This document shows, one piece after another, positions 1-8,190 of a stretch of DNA of 8,190 nt. The stretch lies in IMG/VR virus record IMGVR_UViG_2734482595_000009, positions 1-8,190 of that record. One strand, 5' to 3'. Within the stretch, counting starts at the first letter, position 1, and each line of letters begins with the position of its first letter. The translations under genes were made by a program, and so were the position numbers. Source of the stretch: a virus (Duplodnaviria > Heunggongvirae > Uroviricota > Caudoviricetes). The notes beneath the pieces are model-generated. The model ran no database searches, was not told the origin of the DNA, and was given only the letters and a program-made list of their open reading frames with translations.

Positions 1-3000
1 GGCTTGCCCTTAATCGTCCAGCCACGCATATCAGGGATCACGCCTGACGGATAAGCGACTGCAAGTTTCGGGTAGGCAGATTTGTCAAAAGTCTGCCCCT
101 GCATCAGGGCATAACCAGACGGAACGGTATCTGATGGCCACGGGATTGGTGCGCCAGGCGGATAAAACTGCTCTGATGGCGTATAGAGTGAATAAACTGT
201 ACCGTCCGTTAACCCTTCCGGCTTATTAGCAGAATATGCTGGTGACGTATGAATCGTTACGCTGGCATTACTGGTATAATCCCATTGAATATTTACACCA
301 GTCGCATAATTTCCGATTGCAACGTAAATATCGTAAGTATCACCAGATGTATTGACCCAGGCAAAATTTGTAAACCCTGCCGATGTGCGCTGCCATAAAG
401 CACCAGTAATCCCCTTCGGATTACCATTACCTGCACGCAAAACAAGTTCAGATATACCTGCCTGTTGAGGTGAACCGACGTTATATCCAGCCCCACCAAT
501 CAACGTAATTGAAACAACAGAACTCGCCTGCGGCATGGTTACCGTTGCCAGCTTGAACCATCCAGCACCACCACTAAAAGACATTGTTGTGGAGTTGATC
601 GTGCCTATAGACCGTGGGTTAAGTTCAATATCTTTAGAACCATCAAACGAAACACCAGATATTTTTATTGCTGTCTGAAGTTTCGTAGCTGTATCAGAAT
701 TTCCCTTAATCCCCTTAGGAGAATTAAGTGGTGTATTGATCGTCACTTCACCTGTTGCGTTATTTACTGCAAATGGTCGAAGACCGTTCCAGCCACCGTA
801 CTGGTCGCCTTTATCAGTCATGAGCAAGTAAGTATTTGCTCCATCATTTCGCCATATGACACCGTAATCACCTGCAATCATCCTTAACGCGTTCTGACTA
901 CGGACAATAACTTCATCATTAGCGTAAATCTTATTCCCGCTAATGTCTGACTTACTCAAAACAGGATACGAACTATAAAATCCATTACCTTGTTTAAAAT
1001 CTAAAATTAAATTTACCGCAACTGATTCAGAATAAGGATCAGTTGCGCCAAATTTATAAGTCGTTTCAGCAACAATATAATCAGAAGCAGGTGCAGTAAC
1101 GGAGAGACCTTCTTCTAAAAAGACCTCTACGGGAAATGCCCCACCTTCTATATAGAATACGCTGTCTACGGTATCGCCTTTATTACTCATCAGAATGGAA
1201 TGAATAGCGCGTTCCGATGATGAATAAGCCCAGAACATACCACAGGCATAGCTACCCCGGTCCGTCCAGCCGCCTGCGCAAACAAAACCATTAAACTCAC
1301 AATTATTCATTCTGTGATTAGCTGAGCGACTTGGCGTTGAAATGACAACGCGGGATGCCCGATGGCTGTCATTCCTTTTTATCACTAACGGATAATATTT
1401 ACCTTCCTGGACACCCGCCGGGGCATTTACCACAACGTATCGCATCCCCTTTTTCTGATCCACTTCACCTTTGCTGTAAACATTAATGTTACTCAGGAAG
1501 CGGTCCTTGTCGGGAATATCAGCACCGTTCTGGTCTTTCTGCAGACGTTTCTCTGCATTGTCATAGGCTGCTTTTACTGCCTTTGGCGTTGCCGCCAGCG
1601 TTTCAGACGTGCTGTTGGTCGCACTGCTGAGCTGTACTATCCCCTTTTTCGTCGTGCTCGCATCCTCAAGCGCCACGGCGGATGCAATATCCTCTGCCCG
1701 TTTTGCCGCTGTCTCAGCGCGCGTTGCTGCAGATTCCGCCGTACTTTTGCTCTGAGCTGCTGCCGTCGCACTACCAGCTGCCTCTGTCGCCTTCGTGGAT
1801 GCCGTCGTGGCGCTGCCCTTCGCTGCTGACGCCTGTCTGGTCGCCTCATCTTTTGAAGCAGACGCCGATGATGCCGATGACGCCGCCGAACTGGCGGACG
1901 ATGCCGCTGCCGTTTTTGAGGATTCTGCACGGGTTTCCGACGCTTTCGCGTTCGTTTCGGATGTCTTCGCTGCGGAAGCTGACCTCGCTGCTGCCGTGGC
2001 CTGCTCAGTGGCTTCGCCAGCCTTCGTTGTGGCTGTTGAAGCGGATGATGCGGCGCTTTCTGCCGATTTTCCTGCGGCGGTGGCACTGGCTGAGGCCTGC
2101 CCGGCACTTGTTGACGCGGCACTGGCAGATGATGCAGCCGCTGTTTTTGAGCCTGCCGCAGCTGAGGCACTCTGTGCTGCTGCCGTTTCAGAGGACCTGG
2201 CGTTTGTCTCAGACGTCTTTGCCGCCTTCGCGGAATTTCCTGCCGCCGTTGCCGAGGAAGCTGCACTACTGGCGCTTGATGATGCGTTCGTTTCTGATGA
2301 TTTTGCCGCCTCTTTTGAAGCCGACGCATCCCTGGCTGAGGTGGCAGCTTCTGACGCTTTCGTGGTCGCGGTGGATGCAGAAGTGGCGGCTGATTGTTCT
2401 GACGCTGCCGCATTCGTTTCTGACGTTTTCGCCGCACCTGCACTGGTAGCCGCCGCGCTTTTTGAGGACTCTGCAGCGGCAGCACTTTTTGAGGCTTCAG
2501 TGGCCTTTGTTGATGCCGTTCCTGCGCTGGAAGACGCTGACTGAGCCGACGACGCGGCCTGTCCGGCTGACGTGCTGGCTGCGCGTGCTGAGCCTGCAGC
2601 ATCAGTCGCATGGGTTGCCGCCTCACGGGCTGATGTGCTGGCATCGCTGGCTGACTTCTTCGCGGCTGCTGTGTTCTGTGCCACCGCGGACGCGTTACGC
2701 GCCACCTCTTCCACCATCAGTTCAAAACGTCGCAGTGCCTCCGGACGGGCATCATCCTCCGTCATGGCACCGAGAAAATCATTCAGCGTACCGGGTTGAG
2801 AATCTTCATACACGGTGATGGTCCCGGCATGTGACGGCGGGAATCCCTCCACCAACAGAATAACGCTGTACTGACCGTACTCAACGTCCATGCTGTAACG
2901 CCCGGCTTCATCCGGATTTTCTGAGGCCAGCGTGTTCACCACCACAGTGGTACTGTTACGTTTTGCTTTCAGCTGGATTGTGCAGTTCTGTACCGGTTTT

Positions 3001-3041
3001 CCTGTGCCGTCTTTCAGTACACCTGAAATCTTTACTGCCAT
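1..3041 (-). CDS. stf: Side tail fibre protein Stf (lambda Stf / StfR family), N-terminal 1013 codons; C-terminus lies beyond the left window edge
   Basis: ATG at 3041..3039 preceded by GGGGTG (Shine-Dalgarno, 5-nt spacer). Hand translation from 3041 gives [16 protein letters not shown], which I recall as the lambda Stf N-terminus. Hand translation inside the repeat region (2160..2240) gives [28 protein letters not shown]. At the left edge (3..170) it gives [54 protein letters not shown], a conserved distal Stf segment. The frame is open to the window edge as far as I translated it (3..599, 1440..1680, 2160..2240); the rest I did not translate by hand. This ORF is missing from the supplied track because it has no stop inside the window. 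Confidence 0.92.
1680..2700 (-). repeat. Imperfect tandem low-complexity tract encoding Ala/Ser/Thr-rich repeats (KTSETNA-like motifs) inside stf
   Basis: Recurrent near-identical DNA motifs on the plus strand (cgtttgtctcagacgtctttgccgcc near 2199, gcgttcgtttctgatgattttgccgcc near 2283, gcattcgtttctgacgttttcgccgca near 2410, cgttcgtttcggatgtcttcgctgcgg near 1950). The translated stf frame is Ala/Ser/Thr/Lys/Glu-rich. All three plus-strand and out-of-frame ORFs in the track here (1682..2449, 1795..2544, 1637..2644) are artefacts of this compositional bias. Boundaries are approximate. Confidence 0.7.
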
Positions 3042-3051
3042 ATTCACCCCA

Positions 3052-3079
3052 CAAAAAAGCCCGCCTGAACCGGCGGGCT
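3052..3079 (-). terminator. Rho-independent terminator downstream of lom, immediately upstream of the stf ribosome-binding site
   Basis: On the minus strand: AGCCCGCC - GGTTCA - GGCGGGC followed by TTTTTT (plus-strand A-run 3053..3058). A 7-8 bp GC-rich stem, 6-nt loop and U6 tract, 26 nt after the lom stop. Confidence 0.6.
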
Positions 3080-3105
3080 GTCATAACACTGTGTTACCTG
3101 GCTAA

Positions 3106-3705
3106 TCAGAATTTATAACCGACACCCACGATGAAACCGTCAGTGCGCCAGTCACCACTGCCGGAGCCTTCATAAGCAATATCAATGGCCACGGATTCGG
3201 TCGGGTTAAACTGCACGCCAGCCCCCCACGCCAGAGACGTGTTGCTGTGGCGACCGTCATCACTTCCGGTCAGCACATCGTGCGTTTTCCCCTTGTTGTC
3301 AGTTACGCGGAGATAATCCCCGGAGAAAGTCGACACACGGCTGTAAGCCACACCCGCCATCGCATACGCGCTGAACCATTCATTCACGCGTACAGACGGC
3401 CCCGCCATCACGCTGAACCAGCGGTTACGCACGGAATCTTCATGCCAGCGGGTATCGCTGTAACGGGTAAGCTGGCGATTCTTGTCTCCTGCATAGCTGA
3501 ATGACGTCACCAGCCCCAGCGTGTCCGTAAATTCATAACGGTATTTCACGTTAATCCCGTTCAGATCATCGCTGCCGGGAACGTTCGTCGAGGCATGAAG
3601 ATACCCCGCGCTCAGCGTGGCCTGCTGCTCAGACGCCCATGCAGGCGCACCGGATACGGCCAGACAGATGGCTGCGGACAAAATGGCTGCACAAACTTTA
3701 CGCAT
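3106..3705 (-). CDS. lom: Outer-membrane beta-barrel protein Lom (Ail/Lom/PagC family), 199 aa, lysogenic-conversion type gene
   Basis: ORF 3106..3705 with ATG at 3705 preceded by GAGAGG (5-nt spacer). N-terminus [26 protein letters not shown] is a typical Sec signal peptide with an AWA-SE cleavage motif. C-terminus ends in an aromatic residue (GYKF), typical of beta-barrel outer-membrane proteins. Overall close to lambda Lom as I recall it. Sits between J and stf exactly as in lambda. Confidence 0.93.
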
Positions 3706-3729
3706 AATTACCTCTCGCTTTTCTGCAAT

Positions 3730-3754
3730 AAAAAAGGCGCCATTTCTGGCGCCC
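3730..3754 (-). terminator. Rho-independent terminator between the J stop and the lom start
   Basis: On the minus strand: GGCGCC - AGAAAT - GGCGCC followed by TTTTTT (plus-strand A-run 3730..3735). A 6-bp all-GC stem, 6-nt loop and U6 tract, about 20 nt after the J stop codon (3773..3775). Confidence 0.55.
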
Positions 3755-3772
3755 GTATATGGGTTATAAAAT

Positions 3773-6700
3773 TCAGCTGATACTGATGCCTGCGGTGGCT
3801 TTCTTCATCACCACAACCAGCAAATCGCTGATACTTGCTGTGGGATACCAGTCATTTACCAGCCATGCTGACACCGAAAACTCCAGCGTCATGTGACCGT
3901 GACCGGCAGGCATATCAATAACGCCACTGTAAATCAGCGTATTATCCAGCGCGGTACGGTTATAAATTTCAGCACCGTTTTTCCGCACTATCAGACGGCA
4001 TGAGGAGTAAATATCAGTATGCTCTCTCTCATGTTTAGCGCCGCTGAATGCCACCGCCGGAATAACAATCTGCCGGTCAAACGGCTGATCGTCATAAACC
4101 CTGACGGTAATGGTCCCTGATGGCCACCGTTCCGGTGCACGGGAGTCCCGGGGGAAAGCTTTGCCCACTGTTTTAACGAGATCGCCTTCAATCTGGTTCG
4201 CGGACAGTTTTCCCAGAACCCGACAGTTCTCGTTAATCGTGACGTTGTTGAGCGTCCCGGAGTTCGCATTCACGTTACCGCTGATATCGGCATTTTTCGC
4301 CGTCAGCCGCCCGTCCGGTGTCAGGGAAAATGCCGGAGGATTACCGCCGCTGGTAATGGTCGGAGCCGTCAGGCGTTTCAGGAACACGTCGTTCATGAAT
4401 ATCTGATCGCCCTGACCAACAAACATTGGTCTTGTGTTGCCATTAGACGGATCAATAAACGCGATACGGTTAGCGGCAACCAGGAACTGGCTCAGTTTGC
4501 CTTCCTCCGTGTCCTCCATGCTGAGGCCAATACCCGCGACATAATGTTTGCCGTCTTTGGTCTGCTCAATTTTGACGCCCCACATGGCATTCCACTTATC
4601 GTTGGCGTCCTTCCACTCTTTCGAAAACTGCTCCAGTTTGCTGGCGTTATCTTCCGTCAGCTCAAAGTTTTCCAGTAGCTCCTTGCCGAGATGCGTTTTA
4701 TTGATCAACCCTTTATAAAAATTCAGATAACCTTCCGCATCATCGCTCGCCCGACCGACGGCCTCCACAAATGCCGATTTACCAACGGTATTCACGCTGC
4801 GGATATAAAAGTAATAATCATAACCCGGCTTAATATTGCTACTGGCAGCTATCCAGTACAGCGCCGTGCCAAGATAGCGGGCTGTGGTTTCAACCTGCCT
4901 GATATCAGCAATCCGCTTTTCCGAGAACCAGAACTCAAACTGCACCGTCGGGTCATATACAGCCAGTTTCGGGACCGCTGTTATCTGAAAATACCCTGGT
5001 ATCAGTTCAATAGTGACAGGCGCTGCAGGTGCGGCAATCCGGAACGATACCGATGCCGGATCGCCCTGCTGCCCCCACGCATTTGCCGCCCGGACCGTCA
5101 GCGTGTAACGCCCCAGCGCCAGCTGCCTGAAGCGGTATGTGGTTTCCGTCGTCCGGACCGTGCTGACCAGCCGCTCACTGCCGTCATCCGCTGTTACGGT
5201 CAGACGGAGCAGGAAGCTCACGCCCTTCACCACCTTCGGCGTGTCCCAGCGGGCCAGTACCTGATATTCCCCGCTGTCTGCGGAGACTTCGGCGGTCAGA
5301 TGCTGCACTGCTGGCGGCGTGACACCATTCACCGTGCCGCTCTGGTCGCCGTCAAAGTGCGCCCCGTTATCCACGATGGCTTCTTTTTCCGGTACATGCT
5401 GCACGGCGGTGATGGCATACGTGCCGTCGTCGTTCTCACGGATACTCACGCAGCGGAACAGGCGCTGGCGCAGCGTCGGCAGCTTCAGCCCCCACACGCT
5501 GTATTCAGCAACGCCGTCAGGAACACGGCTCACTTTCACCTTCACGCCGTCGGTGACGGACTGAACCTCCACGCTGACCGGATTGCCACTTCCGTCAACC
5601 AGGCTTATCAGCGTGGTACCGGAGGATGGCAGCGTGATTTCACGATCGAGCGTCAGCGTCCGGGTCTGGCTGTTCACCGCCAGCACACGACCACCGTTGC
5701 TGATACCGGCATAGTCATCATCGCAGATTTCAATGACATCGCCCGGTACATGGCGAAGCCCTTCAGCACCCACGCTGAAGTCCACGGTCTGCGTTTCCAG
5801 CAGCTCCGTTTTAATCAGCCACAGCCCGGCGCGGTGTGCCTGCCCCCGGCTGGTACAGCCAAAAGCATCCATCTTCGTGACGTTACGACCGTAACGGGCA
5901 ATGGCCTGCGTATCCTCCACAAGCTCTGTCGCCGTCTCCCAGCCGTTGTTCGGGTCAATCCAGTTCACCTCAACGGCATTATGGCGGTCTTTCAGGGCGC
6001 TGAAGCTGTAGCGGAACGGCGCGCCATCATCCGGCATCACCACATTACTGCGGTTATAGGTCCACACCTTATCTGATGGTCGGTCCTGCACGAACGTCAG
6101 CGTCTGCCCGTTCCATACCGGCATACAGCGCATCGCCGAGCAGAAATCACTGAGCACATCCCACGCCTTGCGCTGCGTGGTCAGCCAGGCATTACAGGTG
6201 ATGCGCGGCTCCGTGCCGCCAAAGCCGTCCGGCACCGACTGGTCGCAGTACTGGCCGATGACATACAGCGCCCATTTATCCACATCCGCCGCACCAAGAC
6301 GTTTCCCCATGCCGTAGCGCGGATGGGTCAGCATATCCCACAGACACCAGGCCGGGTTGTTGCTGTATGCCGGTTTTAACGTTCCGTCCCAGATACCGCT
6401 GTATTGCCGCGTCTGCGGGTTATAGTTCGACGGCACCTGCAGAATGCGCCCGCGAAGATGATAATTACGGCTCACCTGCTGGCTGCCGAACTGCTCCGAG
6501 TCCACCTGCACGCCGACCAGTGCCGTGTTCGGGTAGCACTGTTTCACATCGATGATTTCGGTGTACGACGACCAGAGCGTTTTGTTCTGCAGCTGGTCTG
6601 TAGTGCTGTCCGGTGTCATCCTGCGCATCCGGATATTGAACGGGCGCGGAGGCAGGTTATCCACCATCACCGAGGCCAGATACTGCGAGGTGGTTTTGCC

Positions 6701-7168
6701 CTTAATGGTGATGTCTTTTTCCGTCACCCAGCCACCGTTACGCTGTATCTGAACCAGCAGGCGGACTTCCGACGGATTCCTGTCACCCTTTGAGGTGGTT
6801 TCCACCAGTGCCTGTACACCGAAGGTAAAGCGCAGACGGTCGATGTTTGCCGACGTAATGGTACGGGTGATCGGCGTGTCATATTTCACTTCCGTACCCA
6901 GCACCGTCTCGGAGCCGGAGGATTCAAACCCCTCCGGCGGAGTCTGCTCCTGCTCACCTGCCCGGAACACCACCGTGACGCCGGATATATTGGTATTCCC
7001 CTCACTGTCCAGCACCGGCGTACTGTTCAGCAGCACGCTTTTTAATCCATCCACCGGACCTTCAATCGGCCCTTCGCTGATGGCATCAATCACACTCAGC
7101 AGCTGCGTGGATTTCAGGTTGTCCTTCGCTTCGCGCGGGGTATGCCCCTTACTGCTGCCTTTACCCAT
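3773..7168 (-). CDS. J: Tail tip attachment / host specificity protein J (central tail fibre), 1131 aa
   Basis: ORF 3773..7168 with ATG at 7168 and an upstream GGAG. N-terminus [34 protein letters not shown] and most of the length match lambda J as I recall it, and the length is 1131 aa versus 1132 in lambda. Position between I and lom is as in lambda. The last roughly 150 aa look divergent from lambda J. Confidence 0.97.
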
Positions 7169-7190
7169 TCCTCACGCTCCATAAACGACA

Positions 7191-7210
7191 AAACCGCCCG
7201 CAGGCGGTTT
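7191..7210 (-). promoter_or_regulatory. Stable stem-loop in the I-J intergenic spacer (terminator-like or RNA processing/stability element)
   Basis: On the minus strand: AAACCGCC - TGCG - GGCGGTTT, an 8-bp stem with a 4-nt loop, followed by U-rich TGTCGTTTAT. Lies between the I stop (7229) and the J start (7168). Confidence 0.35.
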
Positions 7211-7228
7211 CACATAAAACATTTTGCA

Positions 7229-7876
7229 TCAGCGACCAATCACCACAACCTGACCACCGTCCCCTTCGTCTGCCGTGCTGATCTCCTGAGAAACCACGCG
7301 TGACCCCACGCGCATTTCCCCGTACAGAACCGGCAGAACATTGCCCTGGGCAACCATGTTATCCAGTGAGGAGAAATACGTGTTCTGTTTGCCGTTATCT
7401 GTACTGGCTGCCGTGGGCGTCCTGGCTTTCGGTGCCAGCATCTGCGCCACTCCGCCCAGGATCATACTGGCCCCTGCCGCATACATGCCCGATACAGCCG
7501 CGGCACCCAGCCAACTCACAGGATTCCACCATGCCACCGCAATCAGCGCCGCCCCAAGCACCACCTGAAACACACCGCCACTTTTAGCTCCCGCCAGACG
7601 CGGCACGATGTGGATCACGGCACCATTTGCCAGCGGCTCATTAAGACGGGCAGATAATTCATTTTCGCCTGCATCACGCCCGGCAATGCGCACCTGATAC
7701 CAGCCCTCATTCAGTTTCTGACGAAACGCCGGGAGCTGTGTGGCCAGCGCCCGGATGGCTTCGGCCCCCGTTTTCACACGAAGGTCGATGCGGCGGCCAA
7801 ATCGTTGCAAATCCCCGTAAAGGCAGATGCGTGCCATGCCCGGTGACGCCAGAGGGAGTGTGTGCGTCGCTGCCAT
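7229..7876 (-). CDS. I: Tail tip assembly protein I, 215 aa
   Basis: ORF 7229..7876. N-terminus MAATHTLPLASPGMARICLYGDLQRFGRRIDLRVKTGAEAIRALATQLPAFRQK and C-terminus NTYFSSLDNMVAQGNVLPVLYGEMRVGSRVVSQEISTADEGDGGQVVVIGR match lambda I as I recall it. A hydrophobic Gly/Ala-rich central segment is present. Overlaps the 3' end of K by 103 bp in another frame, as in lambda. Confidence 0.93.
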   Translation of the reverse strand: MAATHTLPLASPGMARICLYGDLQRFGRRIDLRVKTGAEAIRALATQLPAFRQKLNEGWYQVRIAGRDAGENELSARLNEPLANGAVIHIVPRLAGAKSGGVFQVVLGAALIAVAWWNPVSWLGAAAVSGMYAAGASMILGGVAQMLAPKARTPTAASTDNGKQNTYFSSLDNMVAQGNVLPVLYGEMRVGSRVVSQEISTADEGDGGQVVVIGR

Positions 7877-8190
7877 TTGTCGGTATACCTCTCTCGTTTG
7901 CTCAGTTGTTCAGGAATATGGTGCAGCAGCTCGCCGTCGCCGCAGTAAATAGCGGCATGATTCGGCACCGATGAACCAAAACAGCACAGCAGCACATCGC
8001 CCGGCTGCGCCGCTGACAACGGCACCTGATATAGCCCCGTTGCCTCCAGATTATCCAGATAGAGATTCTGACCGTGACGCCACCAGTCATCCTCACGATG
8101 AAAATCCGGCATCTCAATCCCCGCCAGATGGTAAGCATCCCGGAACAGCGTGTAACAGTCCGTCACCCCGTGCTCAAAGCGCCGCCCGGT
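7774..8190 (-). CDS. K: Tail tip assembly protein K (NlpC/P60-type C-terminal domain), C-terminal 138 codons; N-terminus lies beyond the right window edge
   Basis: Hand translation of the minus strand from 8190 gives TGRRFEHGVTDCYTLFRDAYHLAG, continuing into track ORF 7774..8166. The track's start at 8166 is an internal GTG (Val) codon; the frame is open to the window edge. Contains the Cys/His motif context DCYTLF ... PGDVLLCCFGSSVPNHAAIYCGDGELLHHIP typical of NlpC/P60-like domains. Matches lambda K as I recall it. Confidence 0.93.
   Translation of the reverse strand, partial: TGRRFEHGVTDCYTLFRDAYHLAGIEMPDFHREDDWWRHGQNLYLDNLEATGLYQVPLSAAQPGDVLLCCFGSSVPNHAAIYCGDGELLHHIPEQLSKRERYTDKWQRRTHSLWRHRAWHASAFTGICNDLAAASTFV

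Follow-up and report, generated by a model that had tools for sequence, protein, structure and literature searches.

The locus described here raises the question of where the tail tip of a lambdoid phage came from and which receptor it is likely to recognise. It lies in an 8,190-bp stretch of viral DNA (positions 1 to 8,190 of IMG/VR record IMGVR_UViG_2734482595_000009, Caudoviricetes; hereafter the window), and the gene of interest is J, encoding gpJ, the central tail fibre or tip attachment protein, which decides which cells a lambdoid phage enters. The original prediction, made by comparison with phage lambda, held that a lambda-like J body is joined at a mosaic junction to a divergent C-terminal receptor-binding domain with a different receptor specificity. 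We favour an account in which a foreign tip was swapped onto a lambda-type J body and would bind a trimeric outer-membrane porin, and we put its probability at about 0.9, a figure that excludes the choice of OmpC as that porin.

Comparison with the actual lambda J sequence from NC_001416 (P03749) places the protein firmly among lambda-type gpJ proteins and also exposes its mosaic character. Six Pfam matches (FNIII-A_GpJ, Phage-tail_3, Ig_J, Ig_J_second, Phage_Tail_Tip and Ig_GpJ_C), each far over its cut-off, give the expected domain set in the expected order, from the hub/FNIII-A domain through Phage-tail_3, two Ig/FNIII domains and the tail-tip fibre to the C-terminal receptor-binding domain. 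End to end, the two proteins are 88% identical at the residue level, with a single gap in their alignment (one residue, deleted in the window J just before the L4 loop discussed below). This identity is unevenly spread: it amounts to 95.0% (930/979) over residues 1-979, made up of 98% over residues 1-650, 87.5% over residues 651-850 and 91.5% over residues 851-979, against 43.1% (66 of 153 columns) over residues 980-1131, a contrast far beyond chance (Fisher exact p = 2.5e-52). The claim that the first ~980 residues are near-identical to lambda J therefore stands as an average, but the match is patchy, with nucleotide identity of 75-90% around residues 680-840. The last ~150 residues are, as had been claimed, alignable but clearly different, and the possibility that the tip might be as lambda-like as the rest is contradicted by the same alignment. 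The lambda C-terminus had been described correctly, ending in VIKKQALGISVV in NC_001416, and both protein strings quoted in the original prediction are found in the 1131-residue J, one starting at residue 979 and the other at the C-terminus.

The origin of the divergent part becomes apparent in a three-way DNA alignment of the window J, lambda and phage PhiR55_1. J nucleotides 2809-3396 (window 3773-4360) differ from PhiR55_1 at only 2 of 588 positions (99.7% identity) and are 63% identical to lambda, whereas the neighbouring nucleotides 2401-2808 are 88.2% identical to lambda and only 66.7% identical to PhiR55_1; upstream of these, over nucleotides 1-2400, identity to lambda is 94.7%. The nearest relative changes from lambda to PhiR55_1 at nucleotide 2809, the last PhiR55_1 mismatch before the change being nucleotide 2808, and identity to lambda then drops from 89-95% to 57% at nucleotide 2921 (window ~4248). 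The region 3773-4260, originally proposed as divergent, does bracket this collapse, and the proposed mosaic junction is real, with the nearest relative switching within residues ~937-980. Given that the change of nearest relative is so sharp, with 588 nucleotides matching PhiR55_1 at 99.7% beside ~400 lambda-like nucleotides that match it at 67%, the alignment shows that the tip was acquired by a recombinational swap and not by gradual divergence. Nothing that we found contradicts either the swap or the domain assignment given below.

An exchange of this kind has precedent. In an analysis of 1207 J homologues, Maddamsetti et al. (2018; PMC6646904) described residues 960-1132 as an independently recombining "specificity region" whose lineages are marked by indels at 1012, 1048-1049, 1077-1078 and 1107. 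In the window J, residues ~960-1132 likewise have a history unlike that of the rest of the protein, and it is one instance of the exchange that those authors described; the view that the locus displays ordinary tail-fibre domain shuffling and no new system agrees with this published module exchange. The route we favour is homologous recombination within the conserved fibre stretch at residues ~937-973, leaving a lambda-type J body with a foreign tip, such that the 3' end of J (window 3776-4360) represents a horizontally exchanged specificity cassette from the class of tips carried by PhiR55_1 and by Shiga toxin (Stx) phages such as VT1-Sakai. Brodel et al. (PMC11338833) joined the two parts of their engineered gpJ chimeras at lambda residue 964, the "last stretch of identity", and this point falls within the conserved junction stretch of the window J. 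A prophage J from Escherichia coli APEC 102026 (6659-10054 of its locus), also of 1131 residues, shares the lambda-type shaft of the window J and matches it at 98% identity, with differences at residues 983-997 (QIK and DI, as in the phi21/A8 types) and at the tip of the L2 loop (ERENND). It appears, from these differences, to switch to this tip ~25 residues further downstream than the window J does, and since the two switch sites differ, crossing over seems to have occurred at more than one point, probably in separate events that lay only a few dozen codons apart. Separately, the stretch at window ~4650-5130 (J residues ~680-840, around the second Ig domain and where the helical shaft begins) shows 72-87% nucleotide identity to lambda and PhiR55_1 alike, which points to a possible third parental source for this part of the body.

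The C-terminal part of J had been taken for the receptor-binding domain, and this identification proved sound. Residues 1001-1131 match Pfam PF12421 (Ig_GpJ_C) with 128 bits against a cut-off of 26, covering profile positions 1-135 of 135, and a phmmer search of the last 225 residues against the PDB returned "A8 gpJ 713" (9wca/9wcb) at 3e-97 and lambda gpJ (8xcj/8xck/8iyk) at ~1e-76. An AlphaFold2 model of residues 972-1131, drawing on 31 homologues, has nine strands and a predicted local distance difference test score (pLDDT) of 79, and predicts the Ig-like beta-sandwich of an Ig_GpJ_C domain. Foldseek matched this model to 9wca, 9wcb, 8xck and 8xcj with template modelling (TM) scores of 0.78-0.81 and E-values of 2.5e-17 to 2.7e-15; these targets comprise closed and open tips, with the open A8 gpJ bound to EDL933 OmpC and the open lambda gpJ bound to LamB.

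Ge & Wang (PMC11101478) described this Ig-like module as having four bottom loops, L1-L4, that enter the porin. In the AlphaFold2 model the inter-strand loops alternate between nearly invariant motifs, one of which is DMPAGHG, and variable segments, and on this basis the invariant motifs would face the fibre whilst the variable loops would form the bottom of the domain. The variable segments L1, L2 (HEREHTD), L3 (LDN) and L4 coincide with the lambda hot spots at 1012, 1048-9, 1077-8 and 1107. The differences from every other tip type are located in L1, L2 and L4, as is the variation within the class, which among 15 sequences of at least 85% identity peaks at the L2 tip (EREHTD, EKEHTD, QDEHTD, ERENND and others) and around L4, a pattern compatible with an arms race against a surface loop that is itself polymorphic. 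Compared with the window tip, L1 is 4 residues shorter in the phi21/A8 group and 2 residues longer in phage 434, and the L2 hairpin of the window tip is 5-7 residues shorter than those of phi21, A8 and 434; this hairpin is the counterpart of the indel hot spot at 1048-1049 (PMC6646904) and of the hairpin with which phi330 is predicted to reach inside the OmpC barrel (PMC12502783). Judged by sequence, the window tip forms a distinct class, in which L1 and L2 of lambda-like length are set on a scaffold nearer to that of phi21 and A8.

How such a tip would work can be proposed from the lambda system, in which porin binding spreads the base of the trimer and the resulting twist travels up the fibre to open the tail tip (PMC11101478). 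The Ig-like beta-sandwich would form a trimer where the central fibre ends, with the conserved 'top' motifs maintaining the connection to the fibre and relaying the opening signal and the four variable 'bottom' loops contacting a trimeric outer-membrane porin. Binding would then lead to fibre twisting and tail-tip opening as for lambda. Docking of the homotrimer on a trimeric porin, and the tail opening that follows, are proposed for the window tip by analogy with 8xcj and 9wcb.

Which porin would be bound is much harder to say from kinship. In pairwise comparisons measured from NENC to the C-terminal end, the window tip is 68% identical to the tip of phage 21 (phi21; receptor LamB), 65% identical to that of BP-4795 (for which we found no receptor), 63-64% identical to those of phi330, Turner and A8 (OmpC for phi330 and A8), 45% identical to that of 434 (OmpC) and 43% identical to that of lambda (LamB). 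The OmpC requirement of phi330 has been proven by Keio knockout and complementation (PMC12502783), and A8 gpJ has been solved in complex with OmpC (PDB 9wcb). The tips of phi21 and phi330 are 81% identical to each other, with identical loop lengths, yet their receptors differ, and given that the window tip reaches only 63-68% identity to any of these relatives and has other loop lengths, similarity gives no receptor for it. The phi330 tip, considered as a possible equivalent of the window tip, was rejected on its 64% identity and differing loop lengths. A search for the receptor used by carriers of the class (PhiR55_1, VT1-Sakai, 2G7b, the PhiR phages and the PV3405xx records) found none in the literature searched. 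The proposal that the junction implies a different receptor is plausible, but divergence alone is insufficient to establish it, with phi21 using LamB at 48% identity to lambda and phi330 using OmpC at 81% identity to phi21.

We lean slightly towards OmpC, probably used in an allele-selective manner, as a tentative choice that we rate a little short of an even chance. This lean reflects the polymorphism of OmpC, the fact that the closest solved complex is with OmpC, the abundance of the tip class in prophages of enterohaemorrhagic E. coli (EHEC) and the precedent of 1A2, a natural gpJ tip that is allele-selective, using EDL933 OmpC and not K-12 OmpC (PMC11338833). The same study counted 76 OmpC variants in 525 genomes, and the hypervariability of the L2 tip would be in keeping with a receptor as polymorphic as this. 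Several observations weigh on the other side. The hairpin predicted to insert into OmpC in phi330 and A8 is 5-6 residues shorter in the window tip, and since A8 and phi330 belong to a different allele class, their OmpC assignment is not transferable. Host range provides a further, non-significant hint: six phages of the class are among the Brenes-Laub PhiR phages, reportedly described by those authors in 2025, and 0/6 propagated on K-12 compared with 7/30 of the lambdoid PhiR phages overall (hypergeometric p = 0.17). The hosts used for these six were E. coli C or ECOR13, and the general permissiveness of E. coli C confounds the clue. More generally, the 8,190-bp window alone is too short to judge the function or integrity of a prophage.

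Other points against OmpC speak for a tip that is still specific for LamB, like those of lambda and phi21, in which case the mosaic would alter affinity or the range of LamB variants used and not the receptor itself. The nearest characterised relative, phi21 (68%), is a native LamB user (PMC11336670), L1 and L2 have the lengths seen in lambda, and the W1015-P-S-G-T motif (W-PSGT) is kept in common with lambda. The phi21 tip, moreover, is about as far from lambda (48%) as the window tip is (43%), so LamB binders can evidently diverge to this extent. However, one point mutation turns phi21 to OmpC use (PMC11336670) and phi330 uses OmpC, so relatedness to phi21 is a poor guide to the receptor, and the loops themselves are not conserved with lambda (RDSRAPERW versus RQRESSVDW and HEREHTD versus KRTVSGR). 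We consider continued LamB use nearly as likely as OmpC use, although we hold it with low confidence.

That the tip uses another porin seems rather unlikely, and we judge slightly less likely still the broader proposal that it binds another outer-membrane protein, such as OmpF, PhoE, a porin of the NmpC type or, among monomeric receptors, FhuA. In its favour, a handful of substitutions in the loops discussed above is enough for lambda J or phi21 J to gain the use of OmpF (PMC6646904, PMC11336670), and the search described above found no published receptor for the class; the natural family members with known receptors that we examined, however, all use LamB or OmpC. FhuA, named as a candidate in the original prediction, is particularly unlikely because no separate receptor-binding gene follows J and because the threefold-symmetric, Ig-like tip matches trimeric porins, as in the solved complexes 8xcj and 9wcb; in FhuA-dependent siphophages the receptor-binding protein has a gene of its own, located after that for gpJ (bioRxiv 10.64898/2026.04.02.716166), whereas here lom lies directly after J. 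A bolder variant, which we hold to be improbable, is that the class natively uses a receptor new to natural gpJ tips (OmpF or another porin) or is a dual LamB/OmpC binder and so a natural intermediate, an idea that draws on the make-up of the class, whose loop lengths resemble those of lambda, whose scaffold resembles that of phi21/A8 and whose L2 tip is hypervariable. Least credible of all is that no recombination took place and the C-terminus simply diverged faster in one lineage under diversifying selection, since although the specificity region does evolve fast (PMC6646904), a tip nearly identical to that of PhiR55_1 abuts ~400 nucleotides that resemble lambda and not PhiR55_1.

In E. coli and Shigella prophages, this allele ranks with the commonest J tips. 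Of the deposited phage records, 52 carry the 153-residue tip at 95% identity or more and a further four at 89-94%, the carriers including PhiR55_1 (99.3%), VT1-Sakai, JLK-2012, 2G7b, the PPompW prophages and a large number of Stx2a- and Stx1a-converting phages. Among 5,426 complete E. coli genomes, the 488-nucleotide tip stretch occurs at 99% identity or more in 830 records and at 95% or more in ~2,300; fragment matches come from E. coli, E. albertii, E. fergusonii and Shigella, and O157/EHEC prophages carry the class in abundance. RefSeq already contains a protein identical to the window J (WP_052979541.1 / CSN44427.1, Shigella sonnei), so that the phenomenon, the allele and the protein are all on record. 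When J proteins are clustered at 90% over their full length, the 1131-residue window J falls together with 1132-residue, lambda-length J proteins in a cluster of 25,550 members, and full-length clustering can therefore hide the receptor-binding type. The tip class is also carried by PhiR40_1, PhiR47_1 and PhiR55_1 (PV340560, PV340566, PV340571), which with PhiR68.2 are the four phages named in a discussion of phages that could do without the inner-membrane ManYZ channel (PMC13190303); ManYZ use was grouped there by tape-measure-protein clade, and the tape-measure gene lies outside this window.

Shiga-toxin-converting phages, namely VT1-Sakai and many of the Stx2a phages, carry this allele, as do prophages in a substantial proportion of E. 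coli and Shigella genomes. If its receptor were known, the spread of stx and other prophage-borne genes could be better predicted and the tip for engineered lambda delivery particles better chosen. If the class did turn out to use a new receptor or to bind both LamB and OmpC, toxin-converting phages would have a major route into the cell that has so far gone unmapped, considering how common the tip is.

The surroundings of J are those of a lambdoid tail-tip module, with all genes on the minus strand (Table 1). A partial K (NlpC/P60), I, J, lom and stf follow one another in the lambda order K-I-J-lom-stf, recognised by matches to NlpC/P60, Lambda_tail_I, the J domains, Ail_Lom and phage_tail_N, and the same order is annotated in related phage and prophage records. 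The assembly was presumably broken at repeated prophage genes on both window ends, in K on the right and stf on the left. The side tail fibre protein Stf matches phage_tail_N, Gp34_trimer and Collar in Pfam, and its visible part has no frameshift, in contrast to lambda PaPa; the phage therefore probably has side fibres, which would probably serve as its second adsorption determinant. Two terminator-like hairpins flank lom, consistent with a moron-like arrangement of this gene in lambdoid phages, and phage 21 has an annotated terminator at the corresponding place after J. Rfam models at gathering thresholds gave no match in the window. Open reading frames at 4110-4406 (plus), 3991-4269 (minus) and 4691-6076 (plus) were considered as other features and rejected because they lack a Pfam match and lie within the strongly supported J frame. 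The long frames at 4691-6076 (plus), 1637-2644 (minus) and 1682-2449 (plus) have no Pfam match either; they lie within J and stf, on the opposite strand or in another frame, and have most likely arisen by chance, the coding sequence being GC-rich.

Table 1. Features of the tail-tip module, with J and its parts first and the neighbouring features after them (window coordinates).
Feature	Position	Strand	Basis or remark
J (gpJ, central tail fibre / tip attachment protein), complete coding sequence	3773..7168	minus	1131 residues plus stop; open reading frame list, translation, Pfam
Lambda-like backbone, residues 1-936	4361..7168	minus	hub, FNIII/Ig domains, alpha-helical shaft, most of beta-prism fibre
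Conserved junction zone, residues 937-973 (ends SGTL), putative site of crossover	4250..4360	minus	J nucleotides 2809-2920 100% identical to PhiR55_1, 89% to lambda
Divergent specificity module, residues 974-1131 (last fibre layers and whole receptor-binding domain)	3776..4249	minus	57.1% nucleotide / 43% residue identity to lambda; 99.6% nucleotide identity to PhiR55_1
Ig-like receptor-binding domain, residues 1001-1131	3776..4168	minus	PF12421 Ig_GpJ_C
L1 region, residues 1004-1017	4118..4159	minus	loop in AlphaFold2 model; lambda-like length; spans lambda hot spot 1012
L2 hairpin, residues 1043-1056, tip REHT at 1048-1051	4001..4042	minus	lambda-like length; most variable spot of allele class
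L3 turn LDN, residues 1074-1076	3941..3949	minus	inter-strand turn in AlphaFold2 model; adjoins hot spot 1077-1078 (PMC6646904)
L4 loop, residues 1105-1115	3824..3856	minus	low-pLDDT block; second within-class variation cluster; lambda hot spot 1107 (PMC6646904)
I	7229-7876	minus	Lambda_tail_I match
Terminator-like hairpin and T-run	3735..3754	minus	directly 3' of J stop codon; consensus scan
lom	3106-3705	minus	Ail_Lom match
Terminator-like GC hairpin and T-run	3058-3079	minus	directly 3' of lom
Stf (side tail fibre gene)	3-3041	minus	start at 3041, open to left end of window, at least 1013 residues

Set beside the systems already characterised, the window J resembles lambda gpJ in its overall architecture (P03749; PDB 8xck closed, 8xcj LamB-bound), sharing its domain order, its tip fold (TM 0.80-0.81) and the lengths of L1-L3, whilst the tip is only 43% identical and all four receptor loops differ in sequence. 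Phage 21 J has the closest tip with an experimentally known receptor and shares its C-terminal strand with the window tip; its L1 is 4 residues shorter and its L2 hairpin 5 residues longer (NFNSNNQQSYW). The best sequence match in the PDB, and the best fold match, is A8 gpJ / phi330 J (9wca, 9wcb; 61-64% identity), which differs from the window tip in the lengths of L1 and L2 just as phi21 does, and the A8 gpJ chimera, a natural tip fused to lambda J at residue 964, has the very architecture that is found naturally in the window (PMC11338833, PMC12502783). Phage 434 J, an OmpC user (PMC11101478), shares the domain family and has longer L1, L2 and L3. The tips of PhiR55_1, VT1-Sakai (Sp15), Stx2a_WGPS2 and 2G7b belong to the same allele class as the window tip, with 98-99.3% protein identity. 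The PhiR55_1 J as a whole is 1159 residues long, its shaft/fibre region (J nucleotides ~2460-2680) being 28 residues longer and 51-62% identical to the window at the nucleotide level, such that the window J presents the same tip with a lambda-type shaft in place of the PhiR55_1-type shaft.

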